Positions 32,501-54,763 of a stretch of DNA of 64,000 nucleotides are shown in pieces. Position numbers and translations under genes: made by a program. Under the pieces are notes generated by a model. It was not told the DNA's origin. It searched no databases and saw nothing but the letters and a program-made list of their open reading frames with translations. Within the stretch, counting starts at the first letter, position 1. Each line of letters opens with the position of its first letter. This DNA comes from a virus: IMG/VR virus record IMGVR_UViG_3300045988_147264, positions 1 to 64,000 of that record, one strand, 5' to 3'.

Positions 32501-34024
32501 TTACTCCGAAAGGATTGACGGAATGATTGACATTGTTCTGGTTGGGTCAAGTACACAAACTCCGAGAGTAGCCATACGGTGCATAACCGCAGAATCCTCA
32601 TCGAATGACATGAACTGATTACCGATCTGACCAGTAAACGGATTTCTCAACCCCCATTGATAGCCTCGATACTCTGGCTGTCCCTTAATCTGGCACTTGA
32701 AGATATTTGGCTGATCAGATGTGCCAATATAGAAAATGTCAAATCTGTAAGACTGTGCGACTCCACCCTCCGGATGCAGCACCTTGTTACGAACAGGATC
32801 ATCATACATTGGGAGTACGTTAAGCTTAACCTTAACTCCTAATGGAGCAATCCACTCTGTTACCTGATAGTCAGTGAGCGACACTGCGTTACCAGGAGCA
32901 AAGTTAGCACTGGTCTTATTGAAATATGAAGGGTTCTGGGTTGACATCATAGGCATCCAACCAGAAGCGGTATTCTTAGCCTCGCGGTTAAAAATAAGCG
33001 CACCCTTTTCCCCAGTGTTGATTACGAAAGTGCGATCACCGAAATCAAGCTTAGCCGCAGACAACTCATAAAGAGCGTCGAGAATCAGCTTCATTACAGA
33101 ATGTGTATCATTGTAATACATGGTATTACCATACTCCATCTGCTCGAAGAGACCAGCTCCTGTCTTGATAGCGTTTCCACTCTTTCCGATATTGAGATAC
33201 TCTCCATTCGCGTTTCTATTGGAACGGCCAAACAGAATAGCGTTGTTCTTATAGTCGCTAAAGGTCTGCTCGAACTCCCACTCAACATTGTGCATCCACA
33301 TGTTTGATGTCGTGTGCTCAAGCTTTCCACCAGCAGTCTCCTTTACAATAGGAATACCGACAGCAAGTTTCTTATTAAGCATCGAACCTGGAACTTTGTG
33401 CTGAAGACGAATTGTAGACCACTCGTTACGCATGGATACCGGAGTCGAGAAACGAAGATCTCCAACCTTACGGCTCAATTCTTTCTCTACGAAAGCGGCC
33501 TCAACGGAGAATTTCTCTCCAGCAAGAAGTCTCTCAGCTGGAACGCCATTAATGTTACCACCAGCAAGCTCGACCTTGTATACGGCCTGCGTTCCCTCCA
33601 TCCTAGGATCGCCAAGTATTCTGAACTGATATATTTCATTAAGGTTACCTGTGATGTATTCGCCATCAGCGAACTGATCCTCGTTGAACACAAGATAGAA
33701 CGGAACCGTATTCGCACCGACCATTCCAGATTTTGATGTCACAGGGGTGCCATCCTCCAGTCTCGCCTCTACAAGAGGAATGTTTCTACGATTGGAACCA
33801 ATAACGTCCCACGTATACTCAGAGTCATCCTCGAATTCGTGAATAGGGAATGTATTAAGGAATGTATCCCAACTCTTTCCCCTATAATAAGCAAGCAACT
33901 GAACCATTACGTTAGTTGCCTTCTGTGGCGCGAGTTGATAAATCGCGCCTAAGTGATTTTCCTTAGTAAGTCCTTTCCAATGAGAAAAGCCTACCATCTG
34001 ATACTTACCGAGCAATCCGGCCAT
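32501..34024 (-). CDS. Major capsid protein candidate (507 aa).
   Basis: Its size matches crAss-like MCPs. It is directly preceded by an acidic, helical scaffold-like gene and followed by its own terminator. It has the highest local GC and codon bias in the block. Called from position and composition only. Confidence 0.55.
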   Translation of the reverse strand: MAGLLGKYQMVGFSHWKGLTKENHLGAIYQLAPQKATNVMVQLLAYYRGKSWDTFLNTFPIHEFEDDSEYTWDVIGSNRRNIPLVEARLEDGTPVTSKSGMVGANTVPFYLVFNEDQFADGEYITGNLNEIYQFRILGDPRMEGTQAVYKVELAGGNINGVPAERLLAGEKFSVEAAFVEKELSRKVGDLRFSTPVSMRNEWSTIRLQHKVPGSMLNKKLAVGIPIVKETAGGKLEHTTSNMWMHNVEWEFEQTFSDYKNNAILFGRSNRNANGEYLNIGKSGNAIKTGAGLFEQMEYGNTMYYNDTHSVMKLILDALYELSAAKLDFGDRTFVINTGEKGALIFNREAKNTASGWMPMMSTQNPSYFNKTSANFAPGNAVSLTDYQVTEWIAPLGVKVKLNVLPMYDDPVRNKVLHPEGGVAQSYRFDIFYIGTSDQPNIFKCQIKGQPEYRGYQWGLRNPFTGQIGNQFMSFDEDSAVMHRMATLGVCVLDPTRTMSIIPSILSE

Positions 34025-36975: not shown

Positions 36976-37603
36976 CTATTTTAATAAACCTTTGTTCGTC
37001 CACCTTTATATATGGATTTTTCTCTACAACTCTACCCTCGACAACGATATGTCGCTTTTGAAATATTCTTCCAATCAAGCACTTTTTGGGTTTACCAACA
37101 ATTCTCTTTGATGACGATACTACAATATACGTATCGCTGTTAAACTCTGGATGTACAGCTATCTTATTAGGATACTCTAAACTCAACGCAAGACTGTACC
37201 AATTCTTATCGGTAAGCGTTGTATCAATCTTCATATCCTTTAAAAATATCGTATCTCTAAGCGTTACGGTATCCTTCTTGGAAGACGTCATTACAAGCCT
37301 TGAGATGCTCTCGAGCTCCTTGTCTTTTACGCGTAATTCTTTGCGTACAGCATTCATTTTTTGGTTAATACTGTCAACAGAGTTATTCAGCGCGTCAATG
37401 GTATAATTAAGAACAAGCACACTGTCTTTAAGTTCAGAATTAAATAATTCGTAAGCATTTACGTTATTATTGGATTCAGCTAATTTTCTGTTAAGCGCGA
37501 CATTCTTTTTATATAGTACCGAAGACGCGACAGATAGCGAAACAATAATAACAATAATTGCCGCATAAATGTAATACCTGATCTTCATGTACTTAGCCTC
37601 CAA
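36968..37603 (-). CDS. Type II membrane coiled-coil protein (211 aa). Spanin-like or anchor protein.
   Basis: N-terminal transmembrane helix YYIYAAIIVIIVSLSVASSVL followed by a heptad-like helical region. Confidence 0.3.
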   Translation of the reverse strand: MEAKYMKIRYYIYAAIIVIIVSLSVASSVLYKKNVALNRKLAESNNNVNAYELFNSELKDSVLVLNYTIDALNNSVDSINQKMNAVRKELRVKDKELESISRLVMTSSKKDTVTLRDTIFLKDMKIDTTLTDKNWYSLALSLEYPNKIAVHPEFNSDTYIVVSSSKRIVGKPKKCLIGRIFQKRHIVVEGRVVEKNPYIKVDEQRFIKIVD

Positions 37604-38202
37604 TTAACGTTAGACATTATTGATGAGGTCTGAATACCGCCTTCAGATGTAAAATTAACAATTGTGTTACCAAAATATATGTATTTATCAACTGGCGGAT
37701 CAGGTGTGTCACCGATTCCATCCTGCGATACATTTAACGTTTTGGTTATCACATCGCCATCAGACAAAATAATCTTTATGTCTCTTGAATGAGACGATGT
37801 ATTAGTGCCAACATTGATTGTTATTACATATTCATACATAGCGGTCTTTCCAGGATCACCACTAATGAATATATAATTTACACCATCCCAATTAGATAAA
37901 ATTCCACCGTTTACACGAACGTTACCAGCCATTGATGTCACAATGGTCTTGACATTTGCCGCGCCGACAATAGTTACCATCGATTCGTTTGCATCAAGAT
38001 GTTGGGTATATCTTGATATGTTAAGAACTTCACCGACGCCCTTTTGTTCAAGACTTATAGTCGCATATTTCTTATTATCAAACGATACCCTAAACCGTCC
38101 CATTAGTGACTCTCTTCCATTGTTTGGCGAGGATGTACTAATAATTATATCACTATTTCCTGAACCGGATGTATCGCCGCTCTTAATATAAAAATTACTC
38201 AT
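37585..38202 (-). CDS. BACON-like Ig-domain virion protein (205 aa).
   Basis: The N-terminus MSNFYIKSGDTSGSGNSDIIISTSSPNNGRESL matches the second half of the BACON consensus. The C-terminus ...IMSNVNWRLST matches the first BACON strand (SNtsWtv). Confidence 0.45.
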   Translation of the reverse strand: MSNFYIKSGDTSGSGNSDIIISTSSPNNGRESLMGRFRVSFDNKKYATISLEQKGVGEVLNISRYTQHLDANESMVTIVGAANVKTIVTSMAGNVRVNGGILSNWDGVNYIFISGDPGKTAMYEYVITINVGTNTSSHSRDIKIILSDGDVITKTLNVSQDGIGDTPDPPVDKYIYFGNTIVNFTSEGGIQTSSIMSNVNWRLST

Positions 38203-38220
38203 GTAGCTATTATATTAAGG

Positions 38221-38243
38221 GACGAGCATAACCCGTCCCCAGT
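38221..38243 (-). terminator. Weak terminator or attenuator hairpin between the 221-aa and 205-aa genes.
   Basis: Minus-strand stem GGGACG/CGTCCC with loop GGTTATGCT, followed by CTTAATATAAT (a poor U-tract). Confidence 0.3.
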
Positions 38244-38253
38244 GTTAAACAAA

Positions 38254-38919
38254 TTAAACAGTTGTAAGTGTCCAGGCAATATTGGAAGATATCTTTGCGT
38301 TGGTTGACGGTGTACCGTCTGCGGCAATGCGAATAAATGCTATCTCTGATCCCTGACTATTCGTAAATTTAAGATACTTTTCAGCTCCTGCCTGATTAAT
38401 ATCTCCAGTACCGACGATAGATGCCGTCGTTGCTGATGTTATTGTTACAGGATACTTTACAATAGACACAGACGCATTCGCGGGAATCGTTACAACCATT
38501 GTTACGGTATACTGAGCCGTGGCTCCAGGGTCCCCCGTAGGTGTAACAGTAATATTATTTGTACCAGACAGTGAAACGGCAGAATCATTAACGCTGATGC
38601 TTTTGATTACAGGAATTTGTGAAGAATATCCTGTAGGTGCATCAACCCTTGCAATAAATGACTTACTATTTGACGTAAACACAACATTTACGTTACCGCC
38701 ATCCTTAACAGCGGTTCCGACAGAAGAGATTTTTATGAACTCTGTTGCTCCTTCCTGAGTAATTTCAAGGTTGTTGCTTGATGTTAATGTTCCGTCTGTT
38801 TCTTTTGCAGAAATGTTTACTGTACGAGAGTTTCGTCCGGTATTTTTAGTCGTGCTTATAGTCAACGTGACGTCTCCAGAACCGGAGTCAGGTGTGATTG
38901 TTGCAAAATTAGTTACCAT
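38254..38919 (-). CDS. BACON-like Ig-domain virion protein (221 aa).
   Basis: The N-terminus MVTNFATITPDSGSGDVTLTISTTKNTGRNSRTVNI and the C-terminus ...ISSNIAWTLTTV show the same half-domain arrangement as the 205-aa paralog. Confidence 0.45.
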   Translation of the reverse strand: MVTNFATITPDSGSGDVTLTISTTKNTGRNSRTVNISAKETDGTLTSSNNLEITQEGATEFIKISSVGTAVKDGGNVNVVFTSNSKSFIARVDAPTGYSSQIPVIKSISVNDSAVSLSGTNNITVTPTGDPGATAQYTVTMVVTIPANASVSIVKYPVTITSATTASIVGTGDINQAGAEKYLKFTNSQGSEIAFIRIAADGTPSTNAKISSNIAWTLTTV

Positions 38920-41897: not shown

Positions 41898-44800
41898 TTA
41901 GATTGTGTGAATATAACATTTAAGCGACCCGCTCGAATATAGTGGAAGACTATTATCTGTTCGCGTTTTTCCGGTTATAAAGATATTTATAATATGATCG
42001 GTATCGCTATTAAAATATCCTTGTCTCATATCGTGTAGATGGGCAACAAAAAATAGCGTAGTATCCATATAGCCGCTTGTACTAGAGCTTTCCGCCATTG
42101 CCGCTTCTAGTTTAGCCATTACACTAACGGTATAAGCGGCATTTGATACAGGAACGTAATTGAATGTCGCGTTACAATATACAGGAACACTATTTTTATG
42201 CAAAGCATACATTGTTTCTATAGAATCAGTATCAACTTCGTAAGTGGTATTACCTGGTGATATTATTCCAGAATGCGTGTATACATATGGATTCACAATA
42301 GGAACCAGTCCTCTTATCTTATCAGTTATTACATTAACAGAATTCTGGGTTACTGTAATGCCGCTATTAGATGTTAATATGTCAAGCACTGTGTCTCCAG
42401 AGCCGCCAATAAGACAATGATTACTTTCGGTCAGCGAGCCAAACGATGCCATGTTTTTACCAATAAATACAGATGGATTTACATAAACACCGAATGTAGC
42501 CCCTGCATCAAAAGACACATTTGCCTGATTTATATAAGCAGAATAAGAACTAGGTTGACTATACGAATGTGTTACTGAAATTGATATTGTGCATCCAGTA
42601 GTACCAGCATAATACAGGTTTCCTATTTTATTAAAAATTAGCGGAACCTGCTTTACTTGATATACTGGTCCGTTGATTTGAACGCTTCCCGAAGCCATAA
42701 TGTAATTTCTAGAACCAATTTTAGCATTTACTGTTACGCTAAAATTATTTACAGACGGCATTTCTGGATATGTATCCGCTGCATTACTTGACGAACTAGC
42801 TCTTATTATAAGATTATTGCATAACAAGTCGTATAAATATTGGCCAGATGGTGCTATTACAAATGTGCCTACCGTATATACATTAGTTAAGCTACTTACT
42901 GTGCTTTGTGTGGTTCTTCTGGTAAAAAACGTGGTTCCAGAATCTACCTCCAATTTATATGCGTTTGCAGAATAATAATCATAACTTATTGTCTTAGATG
43001 GATCTATAACAGTTACTATCTTATTATTACTGTCTTTAGACTCAAACCTATTATCTTGTATAGTTATTCGTTCCCCGGTTTCAGAGGTTCTCACTTTCTT
43101 TGCGACAAGATCATCAGTATTAATCTTATCAGCATTAATCTTCGTAGCGTTTAAATTAATGGCTTGAATAAGGTTTGACACAACCTGCTGACTAAACAAG
43201 AAATCTGTCGCTATGTTCGCATATTGCCCTTGGAACGCAGACCAATAAGCCTTACCCTCATCTGTATCTGGTTGAGGTGTACTCTCGTTGACAAATTTCT
43301 TTGTCTGAATAGCCATGTAATACTTACCGTCAACTGCTCCAGCTGACGTAAAGTAAACTATATCTACTATAATCGAGTCGTCTGTTTCGGTTCCGGTGTA
43401 TAACCCATCGTTCTTCCATACACCTTTATATGTGACAACAGATGGTTTTGTCTTTCCATCCTTGCCGTCAAAACCACATCTGGCATAACTGATAGAGTAT
43501 GTCACGGTTTCATCAGACCATGTATAAATAATCTTTGTCCACAGATACTGACCAGGAAGGCCCTCAATAGGAGTTGAGTCTTCAAGATGCGCAGGCTCTG
43601 TCCAAGATTCATCTGAAGGGATGACATGATTCATCGTGATCGCATATGAGTATTTTGTATCAACAATTTTAGGCGTTGAACCATCCTCAATGACATAGAT
43701 GTCTTCAGCGTCCCAGAGAATATCGTTTACCTCGAATTCAAATCTGATTTTGCGACTTATTGTAGATGTATCAATAGCTCCTGTATAAACCTGCCTGTCG
43801 TTTGAGTCAATCTTATAATAAAGGGTTCCATCTGTGGTCTCTTCCTTCTTGGCGCCAACAACCTTGATTTTTTTGCAGGAAATTGTTAAATCACTGATTG
43901 AGCCGTCACTAAACTTCTTAATTGCATTCGTGGATGGTTCTATCTTATACAGAACAGCATCAGCTCCTGGCTCTCCAGCCTTCACACAGTTTACTTTAAA
44001 AAACAAAAGTTTTACATACTGTGTTTCATTTACTGTGGCTTTTACTGTGATATCAACGTTAAACGATGTCAACTCAACGCCTTTTTGCCATGAAACTGAA
44101 ATTGCGCCTGTTGCTTTATTAGGGACAACAACAACATTGTTCGCAAAATCTGTCTTTGTTACGACAGCTGTAAGGCTATCAAGCGTTAGTTTCTGAGAAC
44201 CATACCACATTGACGCTATTGGGGTATACGATGCAGCTGCTGTTGTTTTTCCGTCATAAGTAAGTGCAATTGACTCTATCTCATTATCAAGGTCGGCAAC
44301 GATCACAGATTCACCCTGCTCTCCAATAACCTCTTGCCAGTTGTAATCCTCTGGTCTCTGGCTGTCAGGATGATTGCTTGGGTTTTCAGAATAATCGACA
44401 TATGTTCCCATATATCTATATCTCTGCCCCTTCGGCTTTTGTGTCGTGAAGTTTTCATAATCAGGAGCCAATGTGTTTGCCCATGCTATATGTAGACACG
44501 CCGAGTCACCTTTGACTCTAACCTTGCCTACATTGGTAAATCCGTTATGATTCTTGTCGTTCTCAAGAGGAGTTCCTGTATAAACCCACAGATCTTCACC
44601 AATAATATAACCGTCATTTTCTGAAGGCGTAGGAGATGTCGGCAAATCATCTATACTAGCAAGTGACCCTTTAATATTCACGGATTTTCCATTCTTGCCG
44701 TCATTACCGTTCTTACCAATATAAGTAACAGTATAAACAACTGATGTTGTGTTGTCGGTATATGTAGTAGTTGTTCTCGACCATAGGTATTTACCCCCAA

Positions 44801-45314
44801 CGATATCAGGACTTGTTTTTGACCAACCACTTGCTGGCGGATTGTTTCCTTGATCGGATAGAACATATTCCACCAGACTAGATTTGATCCCACGCCCATC
44901 CGTTCCATCCTTAGCCGTCAGTGGCCATATATTCCAAGAACCACCAGTCTCCTTAAGTGCGGCCCAGTGATCATCGCTTGTTTGCGGAGCGGCATGCCAC
45001 AAATCTGGTGCCCTATCCGGGTCAAGCGGCGCATCCTTTGACGCGACTGTTGAGTAACGCCATGTAAGTAATGCTTCACCGCCTCCGGCGACTTTAGCGT
45101 CAGTATATTTCTTCGCCTCATCGAGGGTCATCTTGTCTTGAGAATCGACATAGTTTTTCTCTACGCCGCCAGTTGACGATCCCAACTCGAGGTCATCCAC
45201 AACCTTACAGAGCGTCTCCTGAAGGCTGTTACCAGTGATCGCTTGTCTTGTATTCGTATACACGCGATCCTTTATGTAATTCTTAATTTGAGTTTTTGTT
45301 GCCATATATATCAA
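41898..45314 (-). CDS. Tail fibre or spike protein (1138 aa) with a collagen-like Gly-X-Y run.
   Basis: Contains GKNGNDGKNGKS triplets. Large, beta-rich, Thr/Ser/Asn-rich, and located in the fibre-gene run. Confidence 0.4.
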   Translation of the reverse strand: MIYMATKTQIKNYIKDRVYTNTRQAITGNSLQETLCKVVDDLELGSSTGGVEKNYVDSQDKMTLDEAKKYTDAKVAGGGEALLTWRYSTVASKDAPLDPDRAPDLWHAAPQTSDDHWAALKETGGSWNIWPLTAKDGTDGRGIKSSLVEYVLSDQGNNPPASGWSKTSPDIVGGKYLWSRTTTTYTDNTTSVVYTVTYIGKNGNDGKNGKSVNIKGSLASIDDLPTSPTPSENDGYIIGEDLWVYTGTPLENDKNHNGFTNVGKVRVKGDSACLHIAWANTLAPDYENFTTQKPKGQRYRYMGTYVDYSENPSNHPDSQRPEDYNWQEVIGEQGESVIVADLDNEIESIALTYDGKTTAAASYTPIASMWYGSQKLTLDSLTAVVTKTDFANNVVVVPNKATGAISVSWQKGVELTSFNVDITVKATVNETQYVKLLFFKVNCVKAGEPGADAVLYKIEPSTNAIKKFSDGSISDLTISCKKIKVVGAKKEETTDGTLYYKIDSNDRQVYTGAIDTSTISRKIRFEFEVNDILWDAEDIYVIEDGSTPKIVDTKYSYAITMNHVIPSDESWTEPAHLEDSTPIEGLPGQYLWTKIIYTWSDETVTYSISYARCGFDGKDGKTKPSVVTYKGVWKNDGLYTGTETDDSIIVDIVYFTSAGAVDGKYYMAIQTKKFVNESTPQPDTDEGKAYWSAFQGQYANIATDFLFSQQVVSNLIQAINLNATKINADKINTDDLVAKKVRTSETGERITIQDNRFESKDSNNKIVTVIDPSKTISYDYYSANAYKLEVDSGTTFFTRRTTQSTVSSLTNVYTVGTFVIAPSGQYLYDLLCNNLIIRASSSSNAADTYPEMPSVNNFSVTVNAKIGSRNYIMASGSVQINGPVYQVKQVPLIFNKIGNLYYAGTTGCTISISVTHSYSQPSSYSAYINQANVSFDAGATFGVYVNPSVFIGKNMASFGSLTESNHCLIGGSGDTVLDILTSNSGITVTQNSVNVITDKIRGLVPIVNPYVYTHSGIISPGNTTYEVDTDSIETMYALHKNSVPVYCNATFNYVPVSNAAYTVSVMAKLEAAMAESSSTSGYMDTTLFFVAHLHDMRQGYFNSDTDHIINIFITGKTRTDNSLPLYSSGSLKCYIHTI

Positions 45315-45868
45315 TCAAAACTATTATCGAAACTGTCATCAAACGATCCCTTTATCTCAGGTGTTGGAGGTTCAGGATCTACCGGCTTAATATAACTACC
45401 AAGATCGCTTATCTTCAACTTTCGTATCTGCCCATCTTGGAAGATCCACATATACTCATTACCGCTCAACGGTAACGTAGCCCATGGACAACCCTTGAAA
45501 TAATCGTTTATATAACCATACACATACTGTCTAAGGTTCTTGCTTATCCAGTCATTAAGAATTTTATTCACTATATCAGTGACACGTGATTCAAGAACCT
45601 CGTCAAGTATGTCGTAAATCCTGTTATCAATTATATCTGGAAGTACATTTGTAATAAAATCCTGCATGAGCTTATCAAATATCTGTGGCGCGAGTTCATG
45701 TATCAACCGCTCAACGTCCTCGATATTTATAGAGCCACTGATAGGATACCAATCAATAGCTTCCCAGCGATATAATCTGAATTTGTGTCGCCCGTATGGT
45801 TTAAGCCATATAAGCTCCTTGTCTCTTGGCGCCTTAACGCCATAATATATAAAACGTACTCCTGACAT
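45311..45868 (-). CDS. Hypothetical protein (185 aa), possible fibre assembly factor.
   Basis: ORF whose stop overlaps the start of the 1138-aa gene (ATGA overlap). Confidence 0.35.
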   Translation of the reverse strand: MSGVRFIYYGVKAPRDKELIWLKPYGRHKFRLYRWEAIDWYPISGSINIEDVERLIHELAPQIFDKLMQDFITNVLPDIIDNRIYDILDEVLESRVTDIVNKILNDWISKNLRQYVYGYINDYFKGCPWATLPLSGNEYMWIFQDGQIRKLKISDLGSYIKPVDPEPPTPEIKGSFDDSFDNSFD

Positions 45869-46064: not shown

Positions 46065-48830
46065 CTATTGTATATCAAGGAACATATCATCACAATATAA
46101 GGTAATAATTATATCGCCATTGAAACCAGTAGACACATAACTACTTAAATCTAACACAGATGGATTTTGCATCTCAAGCACGACAGACGAATCAAATCCA
46201 GGAACTTCTGTTCCAAAATAGGTTTCTGACAAATCAAAGGTAGGCAAATTTAATAAACTTAAATTACCTGTTTTGATCTCTGAAATTGACACAATACCTA
46301 TAAGATTAGCTTCGGTGGCGGCAAAATCAGTAACAAAGGCTAGATTATTTAATTTAAAAATTGAGAGCGGCATTGGAATGCACCTGTATACATCCATCCT
46401 AAGTTTTGGTACTGATCCACCTGCATCTACACCCGTTACATAAGGAAATATAGGCAAGTAACTTGTATTGTCATCCCTGTTCATTAACCAAACAAGACCA
46501 AACTTCTCACTAGAGAATTGTGATGATACATAGGAGCTCAAAGGTTCATCTGTTTTAATGACTGCATGATATCTAGTTTGATATTCTTCAACAATACAAT
46601 CAGATTCAAGTATAATTGAACCATAAGAAGTAACGGCATCTTTAACTTTGGTAAAAAGATCTGCTTGAACTTTTGCAATTTCACATAACAAGAAGTTCTC
46701 ATTGTTATAAAAGTCTGTATGTTCAGACGTTTCATTATTATAAACAGTATAAGGATTAGTAGATCCGTTTAATATATGAACATATAAGAACTGATTATAT
46801 TTCCAGTCAACCTGCAACTTGTTGTATAATTCGGCAACATTAGACTTTGGAATATCAATGTATATGTACTGTGAATCCATTGATATAGTTGTTCCCAAAG
46901 ATAAACCATCCGTTATAGTCAAGCCATTGGTATTTATATATACTTCTGGATTATGATCTGCTACATCTAACACTTGATCAGCATTTGATATTGCAATCTT
47001 CATTGCGACGGTATTCTCAGACTCTGAAGCATCTTGTGTACAATTGCAAGTAGCAATTACATCTCCAGTAGAAGCTTTAAGAACGAGATCAAAGGTTCTC
47101 TCTGAAGAAGTGTTAACATCAGGTGCCAGAGATAAGCTCTTATTTCCGGTACCACTTATTGGTAGCTGGTCGCCACTTGCTAAACTGTTGCCAACGTAAG
47201 AAGGACCATCGATAGTCCAACCCACATTATCTGGATCAGAGATATTCAAGTCAAGACCTGAGGCGGATAGATCACTTTGACCATTGCAGTCAAAGCGGAA
47301 TGTGGCAGGAACATTCCAAGAAGGTATAACTAAAGACTCCTGATTGTAGGATATTGATGCCGTAGTTGACTTGTTTCCCTCGCCGGTTATCTTCATTTCA
47401 ATAGTATCGTCCCTGGTTAAACCTGTGACGTTCTTACCAACGGTGGCCTTGAGATTAAGCTCATCAATGGTTATCAAACTTGGTACTGATGTGAACTCAT
47501 AGGTAAAATCAGTTATGGTTCTAGTAGCACCCGAAGTATAGGTGGCTGTCTGGTTCGGGGAAACCTTAGCAGCTATATCTACATCCCCACCAGTCTTTGG
47601 AATAATTACAGTAGAAGATGTGGCGCTAACTGATGAATAGGTTACCTGATTGGCCTGCTGGTACACATCAATATTTTTGGTTGTTTGGGAACCATTCCAG
47701 GTTATAGTGGCTGTAACTGTGTCAAGTTTTGTTCTGGCCTTGATGGTTGAACCAAGATTCGAGCCGTTTACCGTTTTAGACAACGTAATAATAACATCCG
47801 AAGATGTTATAGAAGGAGTATCGGATTCTCCAGAAGAATAATCAATCTTGCCTGAAGCTGAGATAAAGCTTGGTGAGTCAGCTGAGCCACCCGATGCTGG
47901 GATATCGTCTAATGAAACAGAAGCAGAGCTTAAAGTATAGGTGACCTTATTGGGATCCTGTCTTACAAAATCGGTATGAGTTAAGGTCTGACCATTAACG
48001 ATAATGGTTATCTTAATACGGGCTGACTTATAAGAATCAGTGATGTTCTTTCCCAGAGAATCCATAACTAGCTCTCCTGTATGCTCGTCTAAAGTCCAGT
48101 TATAAGGGGAACCAGGAGGATCAGTATAATAGGTATATTTTACAGAATGAGAAGAATTAGATTGGGTAAGAGTTCCACCACCAGATGTTTTGCCATTCCA
48201 TCCCCAAGGGATTGAAAATTCGTAAGAAGGGGTGGCAACACCTCCTTCTGCGCCTATATCCCAATTAGAATATCTCATATTGACACTTGCAGTGCCGTAG
48301 GTCTTCTCACCTTCTGTTTGGGTAATAGTGATGGTTTTAGAAGATACCCCAGGATCACCCGAATCGAGAAGCCTGAAAGTGATGTTCCTGGAGTACTCTG
48401 TCTGATTCTCCGCCACGTCAAAGGAGATCTCAAAAGTGTAAGAGCTAGATGCCCCAGGATCACCCGATATCTGATGAGAGACGTTTCCGTCCCAGGAATA
48501 GGCCGTCCCGTTTACTTTAAGGGCGAAATTTGAAAGTAAAAAGGAATAGCTGAGTTGATACACCGTCAGAGACGGTGAGTTGCTGGTGCCAGTGATTTTC
48601 ACGGTGCCACCCAGAGCTGTGACAGAATAGGAAGTGTTGTCTACCATGATAAACTCGCTAGCTCCATCCTGCGAGAGAACTACAGAATCAGAGGCTCCAC
48701 CAGAGGTAACTCCTTTGATAGAGCCTGATCTGCTTGATCTTCCAGTATGGGGGCTTGCTTTTAGTGATCTTGTCCCCGGGCCACTTCCTATAGGCCCATA
48801 TTTTATGGTTATCCAACTTGGTTTTGCCAT
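46065..48830 (-). CDS. BACON-domain repeat tail fibre or surface protein (921 aa).
   Basis: The N-terminus MAKPSWITIKYGPIGSGPGTRSL...VVLSQDGASEFIMV is paralogous to the 550-aa N-terminus. Internal repeats end in R.itf...g....k.ititQ. The PWGWNGKTSGGGTLTQ motif is shared with the 550-aa protein. Confidence 0.55.
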   Translation of the reverse strand: MAKPSWITIKYGPIGSGPGTRSLKASPHTGRSSRSGSIKGVTSGGASDSVVLSQDGASEFIMVDNTSYSVTALGGTVKITGTSNSPSLTVYQLSYSFLLSNFALKVNGTAYSWDGNVSHQISGDPGASSSYTFEISFDVAENQTEYSRNITFRLLDSGDPGVSSKTITITQTEGEKTYGTASVNMRYSNWDIGAEGGVATPSYEFSIPWGWNGKTSGGGTLTQSNSSHSVKYTYYTDPPGSPYNWTLDEHTGELVMDSLGKNITDSYKSARIKITIIVNGQTLTHTDFVRQDPNKVTYTLSSASVSLDDIPASGGSADSPSFISASGKIDYSSGESDTPSITSSDVIITLSKTVNGSNLGSTIKARTKLDTVTATITWNGSQTTKNIDVYQQANQVTYSSVSATSSTVIIPKTGGDVDIAAKVSPNQTATYTSGATRTITDFTYEFTSVPSLITIDELNLKATVGKNVTGLTRDDTIEMKITGEGNKSTTASISYNQESLVIPSWNVPATFRFDCNGQSDLSASGLDLNISDPDNVGWTIDGPSYVGNSLASGDQLPISGTGNKSLSLAPDVNTSSERTFDLVLKASTGDVIATCNCTQDASESENTVAMKIAISNADQVLDVADHNPEVYINTNGLTITDGLSLGTTISMDSQYIYIDIPKSNVAELYNKLQVDWKYNQFLYVHILNGSTNPYTVYNNETSEHTDFYNNENFLLCEIAKVQADLFTKVKDAVTSYGSIILESDCIVEEYQTRYHAVIKTDEPLSSYVSSQFSSEKFGLVWLMNRDDNTSYLPIFPYVTGVDAGGSVPKLRMDVYRCIPMPLSIFKLNNLAFVTDFAATEANLIGIVSISEIKTGNLSLLNLPTFDLSETYFGTEVPGFDSSVVLEMQNPSVLDLSSYVSTGFNGDIIITLYCDDMFLDIQ

Positions 48831-48860
48831 GATGATTCGTTTTTAAAATAAATTAGAAGA

Positions 48861-48884
48861 TGAGAGGGGTTTCACCCCCTCTCA
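48861..48884 (-). terminator. GC-rich hairpin (candidate terminator or attenuator) between the 550-aa and 921-aa genes.
   Basis: 9-bp stem TGAGAGGGG/CCCCTCTCA with loop GTGAAA on the minus strand, followed by the U-poor tract UCUUCUAAUUUAUUUU. Confidence 0.35.
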
Positions 48885-48897
48885 CCTTATGACAGCC

Positions 48898-50550
48898 TTA
48901 TTCAAGAGTCCAGCTATCGTTTGACTCTATAGTGAGCGTCTTGGATTCTCCGGCAGCCACAAAGGTGAGGCTCTCTGGAGTAAGGTTGATGTAAGAAGAA
49001 GATCCCTGCTGACTAAACGTGAAGTCTCTGGTGGCAGTCTTGTCGCCCTCACCGGTGACAGTTACTGTCACTACAAATCCTCCGCGAGGTTCAGTAGTAG
49101 GGTTGGCTCCAACAGAAACGATGCCGTCAGAAGAGAGAGCAAACCCAGTTGCAGCAGTCTTGACCTTTGGACTGAGATCGAAGACAACCGCAGCGGTATC
49201 GCTGGCCTCTGTTCTGGTGGCGCCAGAAGTATAGGTGACAGTCTGCTTGGCTCCAACATTGGAGTTGTCTGTCATGTTACGGCTTTGGGTACCGTCAGCC
49301 CTGAGTGAAACTTTTGTGGAAACAGAAGAATCAAATGTAATATCACCGTAAGTAGCGGTATTGGCTGCCTGATATACATCTACAGAAGCAGATTTGGTAG
49401 CGGTAGCTTTCCAAGTAACTGTAGCGGTGAGAGTACCTTTCTTGGTTCTATTAGTTACGGTAGTACCAAGTGAAGCAGCTGAAACTTCCTCACTAAATGT
49501 AATGGTACAATCATCAGAGCCATTGGTGAGATCTACATCACTTGTAACCGAACCCGAGGTGTAAGTCTGTGAACCCTTAGCTGTAACGGTGGCAGAAGAT
49601 ACTGAACCTCCGGAAGCTGGGATGTCATCTGGAGCAGCCAGTGTCACGTCTGTAACGGCATAGGTTACAGAGTTAGCCTTCTGGCTAACTGAAACTTCCT
49701 TGGAAGCGGACTTGCCATTGGCATTAAGAGTGATGGTTACAGTGCCTGAGATCACGTCTCCAACCACGGTTGTACGAGATTCAGCAGATACCTGACCCGT
49801 AGCTGTGGCAAGGGTAAGGGCTTCTGGCCAGCCCGTCTTAGTTGCATAAGCAACAGTGCCACCGGTAGTAATGGTACCACCACCTGAGGTAACACCGTTC
49901 CATCCCCAAGGCTGGGAGAAGGAAACAGAAGGAGCGTCAACTGTACCACCGGCAGCAGGAATTTGTTGATAAGTACCAACAGTGAGGGTGACAGCACCAT
50001 AAAACTTAACACCCTTGGCCTGAGTGATGGTGATGGCTTCTGTAGTCACATCGCCGTTACCATTCTGAAGCTTGATCTCCAATGTTTTGGCAGCTTCAGT
50101 CTTGTTCTCTGGGATCTTGACGTCGATAGTGAAAGTGAACTGAGCATCCTTGCCAGGGTCGTCATCAATGCCAGTATCAGTTTTTCCATCCCAAGAATCA
50201 TCGTTTATTGCGTTGACTTGGATTTTGTAGGCTGCCCCAGGGATAATCTTGCCCGCAGTCTCTGCCACCTTGATGTTTGCCGTATTTGCGGTACCGGTGA
50301 TTTGAATGGTATCAGAACCATCAGAATTGCTACCCTTTGCAGCCGCGTTGTAGGTCTTGGTCGGCACATTAATGAACTCAGCCTTACCTGTCTGAGAAAC
50401 GGAAGTTGTGTCGGTTGCACCTCCGGTTGTTTTAGCGGTAATTGTTCCACCCCTCTGCTGACGGCCCGTGTACTCAAGGGCGGTAACAGTTGTGGAATCG
50501 TTCATGGAACCTGAGCTCTTGCCAAGTTTAATCCAATTCGGTTTTGCCAT
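48898..50550 (-). CDS. BACON-domain repeat tail fibre or surface protein (550 aa).
   Basis: N-terminus MAKPNWIKLGKSSGSMNDSTTV...SVSQTGKAEFINV. The C-terminus ...LTIESNDSWTLE stops right after the first BACON strand. Confidence 0.55.
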   Translation of the reverse strand: MAKPNWIKLGKSSGSMNDSTTVTALEYTGRQQRGGTITAKTTGGATDTTSVSQTGKAEFINVPTKTYNAAAKGSNSDGSDTIQITGTANTANIKVAETAGKIIPGAAYKIQVNAINDDSWDGKTDTGIDDDPGKDAQFTFTIDVKIPENKTEAAKTLEIKLQNGNGDVTTEAITITQAKGVKFYGAVTLTVGTYQQIPAAGGTVDAPSVSFSQPWGWNGVTSGGGTITTGGTVAYATKTGWPEALTLATATGQVSAESRTTVVGDVISGTVTITLNANGKSASKEVSVSQKANSVTYAVTDVTLAAPDDIPASGGSVSSATVTAKGSQTYTSGSVTSDVDLTNGSDDCTITFSEEVSAASLGTTVTNRTKKGTLTATVTWKATATKSASVDVYQAANTATYGDITFDSSVSTKVSLRADGTQSRNMTDNSNVGAKQTVTYTSGATRTEASDTAAVVFDLSPKVKTAATGFALSSDGIVSVGANPTTEPRGGFVVTVTVTGEGDKTATRDFTFSQQGSSSYINLTPESLTFVAAGESKTLTIESNDSWTLE

Positions 50551-50597
50551 ATTTTTTAATAATTTTAGAAAGTTAATAAATTAGCCTTTATTAGACG

Positions 50598-50760
50598 TTT
50601 AGTCGTTGTATTTGACTCCAAGAGTCCAGGAAGCATTGGATTCTACGGTTAGGTCTTTAGTGCTTTCTGGGTCCGGAAATTCTAATTTCTCTGGAACAAG
50701 TTTGACGAACTCATTCAGAGATTGATGCTTATACATCATCAGAGCTCTAAATACACTCAT
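50598..50760 (-). CDS. Small ORF (~53 aa) ending in a BACON first-strand motif. Possible donor-strand stub.
   Basis: Translation MSVFRALMMYKHQSLNEFVKLVPEKLEFPDPESTKDLTVESNASWTLGVKYND. It lies in an otherwise unexplained 213-nt intergenic gap upstream of the 550-aa gene. Coordinates are approximate (+/-2 nt). Confidence 0.25.
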
Positions 50761-50763
50761 AGC

Positions 50764-51120
50764 TTATACTTTTGGAAATTCTCCCCAGACGGCCAGGGAT
50801 CCTATTACTGATATAACATATATGCGATCGGCTTGAGTTACAGGAGCCTCTCCGTTCATCCATTTAATAGTGGAGTCTCCAACGATAGCGTGAATGGTTG
50901 CTCCAACTTCGATAGTATAGACAGTCTCTTTGTGAGATGCGCTTGACTGAACGATGTAATCGTCATTAAGCTCCGGAACATCTATGTAGTTGACCCCGTC
51001 GAGTTTATCGAGAACATCTTTTACCGTCTCATCTTTATACTTTATCTGATCTGAATTTGTGATATATTGACCCGCTAATGGTCGTCTTAGTTCGCCATAG
51101 ATCTTAATATAATCTGCCAT
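50764..51120 (-). CDS. Hypothetical small protein (118 aa).
   Basis: ORF 13 nt downstream of the 391-aa gene. Confidence 0.35.
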   Translation of the reverse strand: MADYIKIYGELRRPLAGQYITNSDQIKYKDETVKDVLDKLDGVNYIDVPELNDDYIVQSSASHKETVYTIEVGATIHAIVGDSTIKWMNGEAPVTQADRIYVISVIGSLAVWGEFPKV

Positions 51121-51133
51121 GATATTCTAAATT

Positions 51134-52309
51134 TTAAGATATAACAATGGTCATAGGGTCTGTACCAGGAAGATCCTTAGTTCGATAGCACTTGTATGTT
51201 CCTAGTTGAGTAGAAGCTTCCACTGGAGTCAAGAACGGAACATCAAAACCACCAGATGTAACCTTATTGATTGACGTAGTATTAGGGACACAGAGCCATA
51301 GGTACTTGGTGGCGTCATCATTGATTAGAGTCTTGGTACCATTGAGAGAAGATCCTCCCTTTGTCAGTGAAGTGATAGTCAACTCATTTCCTGCGGTGGC
51401 TTTAGAAAATCCGTAATATACCGGAAGATAGAGATTAGCACTAATAGATTTTGGTGAGTTCTTTATGGTAGTAGTGCCTTTCTTAGCAGTAACTGAGCCG
51501 AATTTATAGCCCTGAGCAGCGAGAGTGAATTTCTCCGAACCCTCCGCTACGTTCTCCAAGGTCTTAGTCTCGCCGTTGAACTGAATTTGAATAATATCGG
51601 CTACCACCGGTTTAGAGTTTCTAAGGACCCTGAAGTGTACGCTGACTTCTACCGAACTACCTGTCCACTCCACGGAAGACGGAGAAATGGAGGCCTCAAG
51701 AGAGGTAGGGAAGCAATAGTCTTGTAGTTCAGTCATAGCGGCTGCAATAGCCTTATTTTGAACTGGATTTGTTGACTCAGCATTCAGATCCGTGTCTACG
51801 GTAATTTCAGTTCCAGGTTGAATGTTGTCAATCTTGTCCTCAAGCTTCTTTACCTCATCTTTAGTGGCGAGATTTACAAGATCCTGATCAGTTGCGTAAT
51901 TACTGTCATTCTCTAAATCAGATACCTTTGTTGGCATCTTGTCAAGCTTCGCTTTGTCTATGTCCGTATAATCATTGGTTGATAAACCCTTACCTTGTTC
52001 TTTGTCAACCTTCCCTTCGTTTAAAGACAGAATTGATGCATCGGTCTTAGACGCTATGCCATCAATATATTTCTTTACGGTTTTGTTGGCGATTGCATTT
52101 GACGATGAATCGGACATCTTTGTGTCGATTATTATATCACCGGAGCCAGATCCAACTCCAGTAACTGGAACCCATTTGCCATGGTCCCAGATTTCGACAA
52201 CAGGATTATTATTCTCGTCATGATGAACCCACAACACGTTACTCTTGTACGGGAAAGGATACGAAGAACCGCTAGTGCGAACAATCCTTAAATTTCTATT
52301 GAAATCCAT
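51134..52309 (-). CDS. Tail fibre protein (391 aa) with a T4-type fibre repeat.
   Basis: Contains KGLSTNDYTDIDKAKLD, which matches the short repeat GLSTNDFT..KxKLD found in T4 gp34/gp37-like fibres. It directly follows the portal gene. Confidence 0.45.
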   Translation of the reverse strand: MDFNRNLRIVRTSGSSYPFPYKSNVLWVHHDENNNPVVEIWDHGKWVPVTGVGSGSGDIIIDTKMSDSSSNAIANKTVKKYIDGIASKTDASILSLNEGKVDKEQGKGLSTNDYTDIDKAKLDKMPTKVSDLENDSNYATDQDLVNLATKDEVKKLEDKIDNIQPGTEITVDTDLNAESTNPVQNKAIAAAMTELQDYCFPTSLEASISPSSVEWTGSSVEVSVHFRVLRNSKPVVADIIQIQFNGETKTLENVAEGSEKFTLAAQGYKFGSVTAKKGTTTIKNSPKSISANLYLPVYYGFSKATAGNELTITSLTKGGSSLNGTKTLINDDATKYLWLCVPNTTSINKVTSGGFDVPFLTPVEASTQLGTYKCYRTKDLPGTDPMTIVIS

Positions 52310-52330: not shown

Positions 52331-54763
52331 CTATTTTGTTGTTGGCCTGCTTTTTTGTATAGAAAGCTGTTTTTCCTTAAGTTTATTATCCTTATTGGCC
52401 TGATATTTATCGTGATTGAATTTATCCCTGTCAAGTTGTAATCTAGCATCGAACTCACGTATCTTCTCACGCAGGTTCTGTTTTTCAGATTCACTCATTT
52501 CATCAGGTTCCATAATACCGTCATTCTGTCTGGCAGCCATTGATGCGTTAGCTGATATATTAGCGACAATTATCTTTGTCTCGTTATCTCTCTGATTAAT
52601 CGCATCCTGCTGTTGCATCTCCATTGACTTTTGCTGCATTGCTGCCTCGGTCTTCTGCTGTTCAATTTGCGCTTGTTGTTCCTGCTGTTGCTGAGCTCTC
52701 TGTATCATCTCGTTTTCATTCTTTTCTACAAGGCGTTCCTTCTCGGCAAGCGAACTTGAGTTATATAACTTCATTATTGTAGAAAAGTTCAATGTTTGAT
52801 TTTGCAATGCAGCCTGAGCGAGCATTTCCATCTTTTGATTGAGTTGTTGCACTCCATCAGAGGAATCAACCACAAGACCGTAATCATTCTCCGCAAACTC
52901 GTCGCCATCAATAGACATGATTTGCATTGAATTATCGCTAAGGATATAATTAAACTTCATGGATCGTCCGCGCATCGCTATCTTTGCTGTCTCAAGAAAA
53001 CATTCAAGAGCTCTGCGCTTGACATCATCGTGAACGACAAATAGCCATTCTGTAATATGAGATGACTGCACGTTGGCCCTCTCAACTCCACCTACAGTTT
53101 CCCTATTGGATACTTGGCCCTCACGCTGCCTTGAGATACCGGCAATCTCACCCATCTCAAGTTTAATGAATTCAAGCAAGTTTATCTGGCTTTGAATCGA
53201 GTTGCCAAATTCTGCGTCGATCACTCCAGTTGTGTTGTTATTAAGACCCCCAGCTAATTTACCGGTTGATGCGCCAATATTACCTTCCTTGAAAGAATCA
53301 ACAACAGCTATACCATTGGCCTCGGCGTAATACATCCACTTCTCAATATCCCAGCCTTTAGGCACCTTGGCAATATCGAGTTGTATCAGTTTCCCCCAGT
53401 TATGAGACATTACTTTATTCAGCCTGTCATGAACGATATCATACAGATAATTATAATGTTTCATCATATCAACCATAGAGAATGGCCTGCTATCATTGAG
53501 GTTGTAGATTGAGCCGACTATACCGAAATGACATCTCGAAGGATTGGACAATCTGTTATACTGTACTGGACACGGACGCATATTAACATAAATATCAGTA
53601 CCTATTTTGGTACCCTCCCAGGCTTGATTAACCCAGAAAGTATCCTCAACCTCCCCGATTGATGGGTCTATCTGATAATTCTCATCATAGAAGTTATAAA
53701 CCTCCTCTCCGGTAATAGGATCATACGATCTTACTTTCTTTATTTTCCTGCGCGATTTCCAGTACATTCTCATCACGCGAATATTGCCAGCAACGTCATA
53801 TGGCAGTAACGAGGAATCGTATGAATCCGGAAAAAGATTCATCGCATCAAAGAAATAACCATCTCCACGAACGTCAATCGCGTCATCAATCATTCCTGCA
53901 TTGACAAAGCCTCTTCGCTCGTCAATATTACCCATAGCGTCAACATTAGATCCCTGTGCAAAATCAGGCATCTTTCTGATCCACTCCATATCTTTGGGTG
54001 AAAGAACATCATAGAAGTAATCTATGACTTTGCCAGGAGACCAATAATCCTCGAGAATAACACAATCAGCGTCTTCTATACGGTTTGAATAACCAGACCT
54101 GAAAGCACGTATCTTAAGTGGATTCACTCTTTCAAGAAGAGGTTCTCCACCAACGATTGAGCATTGGTATATTTCCTCACCTACTGTAAGGCCGTCCATG
54201 AAGCCATTATTAAATATCAATGGGAAATTCTGCTCCTTTGAATAATGATTGAGCAGCGCATTGGCACGCACTTCGCGCATATCCTGCCAATCGTAAGTGT
54301 AATAATCGCTAAGCTTCTCAAGTCTTGCGTTGAACTCATCCTCACTCTGGCTCTGGTCTGCGATCATTGCCTGAACCTCCTGAAGCATTTGCCGCTTCTT
54401 TGTCTCCTCGATCTCTGAAAGAGCGTTCGGATTGGTTATGACAACCTTGTAATCAAACACCCGCTTAGATTCCTCGCCCCTCAAGACATTGAGTTTTGAG
54501 TTCATTATTGGGTAATGCACGATATTCTCAGGTACAAGAGTAGACCTGAGGTTGTTTGGATTCAGGACTAATGCTAAATCGCTCATATGAATCCTGCCGT
54601 TAAGCAAGTCATAATTAATTTTCTTGTGGACCACAGAGTTCCTCACCGGACTATAGTTGAAGAATCCTCTGTTGTCACCCCAGTCAACACACTGCCGTCT
54701 CCAGCTCCGGGTCTTCTGGGATAGAGGCAACTGCTGTGGCGGGAAACTAGTGTATTCCGACAT
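52331..54763 (-). CDS. Portal protein candidate (810 aa).
   Basis: Its size and its position immediately after the large terminase fit a portal. The C-terminal Gln-rich coiled region (QQQQEQQAQIEQQKTEAAMQQKSMEMQQQ) is as seen in portal crowns. A TATCTTTG element lies 28 nt upstream. Confidence 0.5.
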   Translation of the reverse strand: MSEYTSFPPQQLPLSQKTRSWRRQCVDWGDNRGFFNYSPVRNSVVHKKINYDLLNGRIHMSDLALVLNPNNLRSTLVPENIVHYPIMNSKLNVLRGEESKRVFDYKVVITNPNALSEIEETKKRQMLQEVQAMIADQSQSEDEFNARLEKLSDYYTYDWQDMREVRANALLNHYSKEQNFPLIFNNGFMDGLTVGEEIYQCSIVGGEPLLERVNPLKIRAFRSGYSNRIEDADCVILEDYWSPGKVIDYFYDVLSPKDMEWIRKMPDFAQGSNVDAMGNIDERRGFVNAGMIDDAIDVRGDGYFFDAMNLFPDSYDSSLLPYDVAGNIRVMRMYWKSRRKIKKVRSYDPITGEEVYNFYDENYQIDPSIGEVEDTFWVNQAWEGTKIGTDIYVNMRPCPVQYNRLSNPSRCHFGIVGSIYNLNDSRPFSMVDMMKHYNYLYDIVHDRLNKVMSHNWGKLIQLDIAKVPKGWDIEKWMYYAEANGIAVVDSFKEGNIGASTGKLAGGLNNNTTGVIDAEFGNSIQSQINLLEFIKLEMGEIAGISRQREGQVSNRETVGGVERANVQSSHITEWLFVVHDDVKRRALECFLETAKIAMRGRSMKFNYILSDNSMQIMSIDGDEFAENDYGLVVDSSDGVQQLNQKMEMLAQAALQNQTLNFSTIMKLYNSSSLAEKERLVEKNENEMIQRAQQQQEQQAQIEQQKTEAAMQQKSMEMQQQDAINQRDNETKIIVANISANASMAARQNDGIMEPDEMSESEKQNLREKIREFDARLQLDRDKFNHDKYQANKDNKLKEKQLSIQKSRPTTK

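Follow-up and report, generated by a model that had tools for sequence, protein, structure and literature searches.

A BACON domain split between the ends of separate gene products in a crAss-like phage, with a putative role in joining fiber modules

Chaperone-usher pili and the type V pili of Bacteroidia (FimA/Mfa1) are known for donor-strand complementation and exchange, whereby an incomplete immunoglobulin (Ig)-like fold in one subunit is completed by a strand or strands of its neighbor, and initiator, extender, and terminator subunits are joined non-covalently into head-to-tail chains. Here, we describe an arrangement in a virus that may follow a similar principle. It lies in positions 1 to 64,000 of the IMG/VR virus record IMGVR_UViG_3300045988_147264 (this stretch of 64,000 nucleotides [nt] is hereafter called the window), the source of which is a crAss-like phage, i.e., a member of the most abundant group of human gut viruses. 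Within it, a viral BACON domain is divided into two halves encoded by different genes: a donor half-domain (D) at the C-terminus of one protein and an acceptor half-domain (A) at the N-terminus of another. All results are computational, and the methods included our own hidden Markov models (HMMs), Pfam, BLAST, AlphaFold2, and Foldseek.

Judged by analogy, the principle appears to resemble donor-strand complementation in pili, whereas the proteins, the two-strand donor, the lack of helper machinery, and the viral setting differ. More specifically, there is no sequence relation to pilins (the sole Pfam 'Pilin' match is insignificant and lies in another protein), and the donor is a C-terminal hairpin of two strands and ~35 residues rather than one strand. 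The fold is that of BACON and the setting a virus particle, and we saw no evidence of a chaperone, usher, or processing protease; indeed, Pfam scans of the fiber-region proteins returned no pilin, chaperone, or usher family above threshold. Split-protein complementation in general includes the engineered split Ig-like domains of SpyTag/SpyCatcher, in which a beta-sandwich is likewise rebuilt from a small piece and a remainder, joining two polypeptides. In contrast, the system described here is natural, shows no sign of isopeptide chemistry, and is nicked between strands B and C. Separately encoded, exchangeable modules joined non-covalently by terminal elements also occur in the adaptor-mediated assembly of branched fibers and tailspikes (T4 gp34-37, the tailspike proteins [TSPs] of CBA120, and G7C gp63.1/gp66), but whole docking domains or trimeric interfaces are used there, and we know of no use of two halves of a single domain in the T4, CBA120, and G7C fiber systems.

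The BACON tandem repeats of crAssphage are each intact within one chain (de Jonge et al. 2019, PMC6949934). These repeats (PF13004, PF19190) belong to the same domain family as the halves in the window and share their Trp-Trp spacing, whereas the domain in the window is cut at a fixed loop, with its parts coming from different gene products; the words split, truncated, and adjacent do not occur in that paper. In crAss001, the head fibers gp29 and gp21 are dimeric and trimeric, respectively, and the distal fibers were left unresolved in the atlas (Bayfield et al. 2023, PMC10172136). The beta-sandwich Head_fiber_dimeric domain of gp29 is common to proteins bearing a donor only (D-only) in three of the related loci that we compared with the window and labeled L0xx (L068, L069, and L086), and gp21 is located just after the portal gene, i.e., at the position of the gene block studied here. 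The window differs from crAss001 in that a Pfam scan of its proteins did not match PF25641 (Head_fiber_dimeric) and in that gp21 is not significantly similar to its 391-amino acid (aa) protein by BLAST. Our full-text literature search (crAss/BACON, crassvirus tail fibers, strand complementation in phage fibers) found neither a split BACON nor the joining of phage fiber proteins by a split domain described.

The half-domain observation is real and far beyond chance. The donor comprises the first ~35 residues of the viral BACON (strands A and B with their loop) at the extreme C-terminus of one protein, and the acceptor comprises the remaining ~58 residues (strands C to G) at the extreme N-terminus of another, starting from Met1. 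Proteins may carry a donor only, an acceptor only (A-only), or an acceptor and a donor at opposite ends (A..D). The clearest examples are three consecutive genes, hereafter set A, whose features are as follows:

50599..50760, minus strand: stub gene, 53 aa, D-only; open reading frame (ORF) that ends LTVESNASWTLGVKYND and a stop; donor HMM E=4e-18
50620..50727, minus strand: donor half-BACON (strands A-B) in the stub, residues 12-47, positions 1-36 of our donor HMM
50551..50598, minus strand: spacer between the stub and 550-aa genes, 48 nt, in frame, with two TAA stops and no hairpin
48898..50550, minus strand: 550-aa gene, A..D, consisting of an acceptor, four Ig-like beads, and a donor; starts MAKPNWIKLGK and ends LTIESNDSWTLE and a stop
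50377..50550, minus strand: acceptor half-BACON (strands C to G) of the 550-aa protein, residues 1-58, acceptor HMM E=6e-31
48901..49011, minus strand: donor half-BACON of the 550-aa protein, residues 514-550, donor HMM E=5e-24
46065..48830, minus strand: 921-aa gene, A-only; starts MAKPSWITIKYG and has no C-terminal donor
48651..48830, minus strand: acceptor half-BACON of the 921-aa protein, residues 1-60, acceptor HMM E=7e-26

From N- to C-terminus, the stub has a conserved peptide (MSVFRxLL), its donor half-domain, and a short GVKYND tail, and the donor of the 550-aa protein is followed by a stop codon exactly 3 residues past its Trp. In the 921-aa protein, the acceptor is followed by four beads that are paralogs of the beads in the 550-aa protein, then by another beta-rich domain, and finally by ~300 distal aa. 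Among the 206 ORFs of the window, C-terminal donors were found only in the stub, the 550-aa protein, and, weakly, a 205-aa protein, and N-terminal acceptors only in the 550-, 921-, 221-, and 205-aa proteins.

A preliminary description of this DNA gave the three ORFs and their termini exactly as found here, together with the 213-nt interval that contains the stub (50551-50763, between a 118-aa gene and the 550-aa gene), and it also claimed that a broken BACON is restored across the gene junctions. Pfam bears out the latter claim. PF19190 (BACON_2, viral BACON) has 94 positions and a cut-off of 25 bits. The stub concatenated with the N-terminus of the 550-aa protein matched positions 6-93 of this profile with 38.9 bits, and the C-terminus of the 550-aa protein concatenated with the N-terminus of the 921-aa protein matched positions 2-93 with 26.0 bits. 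The highest of the three scores (42.5 bits, matching end to end) was obtained when the C-terminus of the 550-aa protein was concatenated with its own N-terminus. Uncombined, this N-terminus covers positions 42-93 only, whole proteins gave partial PF13004 matches under the cut-off, and full-length PF19190 matches were seen with concatenated halves only. The N-terminal domains of the 550-, 921-, and 221-aa proteins begin at about position 42 of the 94, i.e., they appear to be Ig-like folds minus strands. In addition, the four acceptors of the window were combined into a profile; searched against 1.84 billion representatives, it matched classical multi-BACON proteins with E down to 1e-84, and multi-repeat BACON proteins dominated the results.

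The geometry of the junction is also that of an intact domain. Among 1222 canonical BACON repeats (149 unrelated proteins), 982 (80%) have a Trp-Trp spacing of 8 and 119 (10%) a spacing of 9; the spacing at the junction SWTLE/(M)AKPSW is 8 without the initiator Met and 9 with it. This canonical spacing places the nick in the B-C hairpin loop, between the two Trp-bearing strands, and the chain ends would abut there as though a single peptide bond were absent. The piece proposed to be donated is not the single strand that had been envisaged; it spans both strands A and B and the loop between them.

Conservation within the modules is highest at the donor and acceptor ends, and the position of the cut does not vary in >140 homologs with identities as low as 45%. 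We analyzed 120 listed homologs of the 550-aa protein (45-93% identity, mostly from ~100-kb contigs) and found the C-terminal end SWT[LI][SE] followed by a stop in 119 of them, the exception being the chimeric P0046. The homologs with a correctly called start (~100) all begin with M[APST]KPxW or MAT[NS]W; gene calling had placed the start at an internal Met in ~16 of those listed and at a wrong upstream site in a few more. As to whether related phages encode the units as one fused gene or vary their number, a query spanning the 550/921 junction retrieved 678 relatives, the best 120 of which are each confined to one side of the junction (46% coverage for the 550 side, 53-54% for the 921 side), with no fused form among these 120; the number and order of the units vary. 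The stub is intact in 43 of 43 related loci, which represent five subtypes, and its start is conserved as MS[VM]FRxLL. Judging from a ratio of nonsynonymous to synonymous polymorphism (pN/pS) of 0.36 among close relatives, it is under purifying selection. It was gene-called in 16 public clusters, all of 46-59 aa and none fused.

These data bear on a suggestion of the preliminary description that the arrangement is a remnant of gene fission or duplication. In an extended form of this reading, the half-domain ends would be kept mainly as conserved sequences for shuffling fiber modules, with no role in assembly. The modules are indeed mosaic: the 921-aa protein and its L063 counterpart are alike only in their first ~395 residues, the tip proteins vary between locus types, and gene order is permuted; the high conservation of the donor and acceptor ends would also suit a recombination linker. 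However, this conservation is found at the protein level, with synonymous change, and the stop and start positions are residue-exact across 45%-identical proteins and different crAss families. Moreover, a 53-aa gene that encodes little else than a donor has been kept in every one of the 43 loci. Given the residue-exact conservation, the selection on the stub, and the lack of fused forms among the relatives compared, we consider a fission scar improbable.

The stub, 550-aa, and 921-aa genes are separate genes rather than one interrupted frame, as indicated by the frames and stops in the gaps. The 550/921 gap is 67 nt long and out of frame, and the in-frame gaps, i.e., stub/550 (48 nt) and the gap between the 221-aa and 205-aa genes (51 nt), contain two or three TAA stops. 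Stop-codon recoding occurs in some crAss-like phages, two of the gaps are multiples of 3, and a stable hairpin follows the 550 stop, so a single protein may come to mind, made through readthrough, frameshifting, ribosomal bypassing of the hairpin, stop-codon reassignment, or an intron. Nevertheless, the 67-nt gap is out of frame, every gap holds several stops (TAA, the codon ending all of the genes), no matched take-off and landing codons were seen, and the gaps of relatives range from 2 to 108 nt in permuted gene orders. In addition, the downstream genes all begin with a conserved Met-Ala-Lys-Pro of their own, and the hairpin carries a T-tail and is found after terminal genes too. Readings that involve recoding, bypass, or an intein were thus discarded on account of frame, stop codons, and absent motifs, and we give recoding next to no chance; Pfam scans of the proteins and junction constructs contained no intein family. 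In a 72%-identical relative, the stub/550 spacer is occupied by a perfect 12-nt tandem repeat of TATTTTTGTTTA in 5.1 copies (L031:5933-5993, equivalent to L063 ~8933-8993), which makes gene callers extend the 550 homolog upstream (FIFLFIFL...); the window spacer has no such repeat.

Two GC hairpins had been noted at the junctions, and both are present:

48857..48888, minus strand: GC-rich hairpin with a T-rich tail in the 550/921 gap (dG [free energy] -26 kcal/mol, z -3.9, 13 pairs)
38219..38240, minus strand: hairpin in the 221/205 gap, lacking a T-run (z -2.6)

The former is the top terminator-like site in 16 kb, and there is no hairpin at the stub/550 junction. In relatives, hairpins with T-runs and differing stem sequences occur after the 550 homolog with or without an acceptor gene next, and the stub-to-acceptor junctions (2-60 nt) are unstructured. 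Since the hairpins follow these long fiber genes regardless of the next gene, they are not part of the split, and the implied link between the two does not hold. By their sequence features, they are ordinary intrinsic-terminator- or attenuator-like elements, and any bearing on the system would be limited to how much extender is made per tip protein.

We applied our D and A HMMs to 30 diverse loci. In these, donor matches lie 0-8 residues from a stop and N-terminal acceptor matches begin at Met1; weaker, partial A-like matches were also obtained inside proteins, at intact BACON-like beads. The following architectures were found (numbers are protein lengths in aa):

Window, L063, and L064: stub(D) - 550(A..D) - 921(A)
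L065-67 and L074: stub(D) - 314/463(A) - 550(A..D)
L068, L071, and L072: stub(D) - 417(..D) - 214(A) - 222/361(A) - 554(A..D)
L069 and L070: stub(D) - 532(..D) - 554(A..D) - 170(A)
L073: stub(D,D) - 534(A..D) - 362(A)
L086: 521(..D) - 523(A..D) - 628(A)
L087: stub(D) - 531(A..D), with no other acceptor in the locus
L089: 524(A..D) - 129(A)
L075-78 and L084, with unrelated flanking genes: 292(..TTWTLE-stop) - 210(A..SNTAWTLS-stop) ... 103(..D) - 752(A..D)
cr127_1 (RefSeq, Crevaviridae): gp35(70 aa, D) - gp36(211 aa, A..D)
csAssE-Sib: a lone 218-aa A..D gene

The distant loci L081 and L085 have the same ends, with Phe replacing Trp, and the A..D proteins across loci contain 1 to ~7 beads between their ends. 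The stub of L073 (L073:8722-8991, 89 aa) has two tandem donor half-domains, the second of which ends directly at SWTI and a stop.

Adjacency of the two halves is far more frequent than expected. Across 11 locus types, a D-ending gene stands immediately before an A-starting gene 13 times, compared to 1.8 expected under random gene order, and 13 was reached in 0 of 10,000 permutations. When HMM-significant ends are counted, acceptors outnumber donors only in the window (4 vs 2) and in L089, the upstream side of which is cut off; the window tally becomes 4 acceptors and 4 donors once the donor-like ends of the 221-aa and 205-aa proteins are included. D-only and A-only proteins are present in most locus types, and completion in trans is therefore required for at least some half-domains. 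In L087 and cr127_1, the only acceptor available to the D-only stub is the N-terminus of the next gene, which leaves the next A..D protein as its only possible partner. Neither the 8-kb region (as DNA) nor the 550-aa and 118-aa proteins (tblastn) had a match among 50,697 phage records.

With somewhat better than even confidence, we favor the reading that non-covalent fold complementation in trans of the split BACON joins fiber modules. It is favored by the D-only and A-only proteins of most genomes and by the sole possible partner of the stub in L087 and cr127_1. Building on the split with its geometry and conservation, the selection on the stub, and the donor-acceptor gene adjacency, we infer how the halves would physically meet, in which order the chains would follow, and where they would attach. 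After translation, the donor would insert into the acceptor and complete the sandwich without a peptide bond, and the completed BACON would form an extra bead in a string of Ig-like beads, linking two polypeptides. D-only proteins would serve as anchors or adaptors (the 53-aa stub here, head-fiber homologs in relatives), A..D proteins (550, 221, and 205 aa) as extenders, and A-only proteins such as the 921-aa protein as distal tips. The simplest wiring in the window would run from the stub to the 550-aa protein and on to the 921-aa protein, and the N-terminal peptide of the stub probably grips the co-translated product of the 118-aa and 391-aa genes encoded beside the portal gene.

Several observations weigh against joining in trans. 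Donors frequently outnumber acceptors in relatives, and in L065 and L068 the 550 homolog comes last, with no acceptor gene downstream, so the order is not collinear. The lone A..D gene of csAssE-Sib suggests that such proteins can be self-sufficient, and the cultured relatives crAss001 and DAC15, when searched, were found to have neither donor nor acceptor elements. The 221-aa and 205-aa genes (set B, see below) appear weaker than set A, with weak donor ends. Finally, the acceptor alone is predicted just as confidently by AlphaFold2 (predicted local distance difference test score [pLDDT] of ~90), i.e., the model does not show that A needs D. As for the preliminary claim that each gene feeds its successor, the adjacency agrees with it and the order in L065 and L068 (stub, A-only gene, 550 homolog last) does not; of the proposed modular chain-assembly system, what stands is a set of real, conserved, and selected half-domains, some of which need completion in trans, but not a strict gene order.

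The A..D proteins (550, 221, and 205 aa) could instead fold their C-terminal donor onto their own acceptor, giving a BACON that is circularly permuted and has the remaining beads inserted into it, and leaving only the stub and the 921-aa protein to pair in trans. The top BACON_2 score of the 550 C-terminus joined to its own N-terminus (42.5 bits) points in this direction, as do the lone csAssE-Sib gene, the position of the L065 stub 2 nt from an A-only gene and apart from the 550 homolog, and the high pLDDT at both ends of the 550 model. This model, predicted from 57 sequences, is all-beta with a pLDDT of 91 and a predicted template modeling score (pTM) of 0.45. Its best global Foldseek matches are extended rods of 4-5 domains (protocadherin EC1-5, RTX adhesin repeat; root mean square deviation [rmsd] 14-16 Å over >500 columns), whereas the rmsd to the horseshoe-shaped Sidekick Ig1-4 is ~60 Å. 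When the donor was omitted (residues 1-515), the secondary structure of the acceptor was identical, pTM rose from 0.45 to 0.59, and the acceptor pLDDT values with and without the donor were 93/90/92 vs 91/85/92. Because acceptor pLDDT is unchanged without the donor, AlphaFold2 confidence is no argument for donor dependence. The modeled protein appears to be a rod with a half-domain at either end, and the rod matches together with the unchanged acceptor structure indirectly suggest that closure within the chain is not predicted. Such closure would also be awkward with anything from 1 to ~7 intervening beads, would leave the conserved stubs of L087 and cr127_1 partnerless, and is disfavored by the adjacency, in most locus types, of the donor of one gene to the acceptor of the next; we regard it as unlikely.

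Analysis of co-variation between the ends of the 550 family (144 sequences, effective number of sequences [Neff] 17.5) detected an apparent excess coupling of donor columns to the N-terminus, driven by two clades, and the reverse test gave no peak. A co-variation of the stub tail with 'GSM' vs 'GxG' in the 550 acceptor was also considered and is contradicted by L087, in which a tailed stub coexists with GTG.

A more far-reaching version of joining in trans is pilus-like polymerization on the virus, in which A..D subunits would be added head to tail in variable number from a D-only start to an A-only cap, with the terminator after the 550-aa gene setting the ratio of extender to tip and hence the fiber length. 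We consider this doubtful; homopolymerization and single-chain closure are both kept alive by the gene order of L065 and L068 and by the lone csAssE-Sib gene. In this scenario, since any donor may fit any acceptor, phages could rewire capsid or tail fibers by swapping cassettes.

The D-only proteins of relatives provide a hint as to where such fibers may be anchored. Those of L068 (417 aa), L069 (532 aa), and L086 (521 aa) contain 3-4 Head_fiber_dimeric domains (E of 1e-38, 3e-35, and 1e-33, respectively); in L086, the protein with three such domains ends in a donor and is followed by an A..D gene and then by an A-only gene. The L087 homolog (659 aa) ends in a complete BACON rather than a donor (PF13004 at 601-657 with 40 bits; PF19190 positions 7-93), and split and unsplit BACON thus occupy an equivalent site in L087 and its relatives. 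With anchors in relatives being head-fiber homologs, the structures may be capsid fibers rather than tail fibers, and our data suggest that capsid-anchored fibers are at least as well indicated as tail fibers. The four head-fiber homologs (L086:4409-5974, L068:7035-8288, L069:7341-8939, and L087:10004-11983) start with MFT(I/K/Q)(Q/E)QI and contain a coiled-coil-like stretch, 3-4 PF25641 domains, and PEGA domains.

The candidate tip of the window is a paralog of the candidate extender: residues 1-498 of the 921-aa protein align to residues 1-515 of the 550-aa protein (34% identity, E=1e-65), and the former runs on into its further beta-rich domain exactly where the latter has its donor and stop. 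The distal ~300 aa had no Pfam or PDB match, and a PDB sequence search with the 550 family found nothing. A sixth domain of the 921-aa protein was considered as a BACON, but it is not significant in Pfam, its motifs being seen by eye only.

At the other end of set A, the stub is directly preceded by the following gene:

50764..51120, minus strand: 118-aa gene directly upstream of the stub, its stop 3 nt before the stub start

The stub is always directly after, or overlaps, a 118/148-aa gene, its start overlapping that gene in relatives. In L063, the 118-aa homolog is the C-terminal part of a single 483-aa protein, fused to the upstream fiber-like gene. The 118-aa protein is therefore a candidate partner of the N-terminal peptide of the stub. 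The N-termini of the 391-aa (51134-52309) and 185-aa (45311-45868) proteins share the motif ..LW[VL]....W..[IV][ST]G, which resembles by eye the hexon-binding N-terminus of the crAss001 head fiber gp21; this likeness is a lead only.

If the split domain is indeed a universal plug and socket, it would explain the free shuffling of BACON and Ig-like adhesin modules and would extend an assembly principle of bacterial pili to viruses, in a form without a chaperone. The 'hypothetical' stubs of ~50 aa and the 'truncated' BACON proteins of current annotations would then have to be read as parts of one machine, and the two halves might serve as a natural, small, orthogonal protein-joining pair for engineering.

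In public annotations, the acceptor-bearing gp36 of cr127_1 (NC_055886.1, L092:4778-5636) is labeled 'lipocalin-like protein' and the acceptor protein of csAssE-Sib (OR575929.1, L093:4501-5157) 'glycosyl hydrolase family 5 protein'; each is a small protein of the A-Ig-D type that lacks an enzyme domain. In addition, gp35 of cr127_1 is an unrecognized 70-aa donor stub.

Set B consists of two smaller genes:

38254..38919, minus strand: 221-aa gene with an N-terminal acceptor (E=3e-20) and a donor-like C-terminus, SSNIAWTLTTV followed by a stop
37585..38202, minus strand: 205-aa gene with a diverged acceptor (E=2e-4) and a donor (E=5e-4, 13 bits) at its ends

Taken alone, the C-terminus of the 221-aa protein gives no significant donor match (HMM E=0.19), and its assignment as a half-domain follows from end-to-end paralogy with the 205-aa protein. 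The 205-aa gene overlaps, at 37585-37603, the start of the next gene, which encodes a 206/211-aa membrane protein, so its donor-like end has no following acceptor gene. This membrane protein is homologous to crAss001 gp27, which is annotated as 'lysis regulatory protein'.

The genes considered so far all lie on the minus strand. The portal gene (52331-54763) is followed, in order, by genes for proteins of 391 and 118 aa, the 53-aa stub, and proteins of 550, 921, 185, 1135, 985, 221, and 205 aa, and then by the membrane protein, lysis genes, scaffold, and capsid. At 32501-34024 (minus strand), the window encodes a major capsid protein that shares 70-72% identity with its counterparts in Steigviridae, e.g., Bacteroides phage DAC15, cr85_1, and Kolpuevirus. 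The 1135/1138-aa and 985-aa genes lie between sets A and B and are absent from relatives such as L068-L073. The 1135/1138-aa protein (41898-45314) has several tail-fiber and host-specificity PHROG matches at residues ~130-260 (E down to 8e-24), and its C-terminal 500 residues resemble an L063 protein located elsewhere. The GC content is 0.47 at 48001-50000, i.e., in the 550-aa gene, compared to 0.38 in the adjoining 921-aa gene, and a Thr/Gly/Ala/Ser-rich composition may be the cause. Two very long ORFs occupy the plus strand at the start of the window (2-6328, 2108 aa, and 6332-10501, 1389 aa) and could encode crAss-type giant RNA polymerase or virion proteins.

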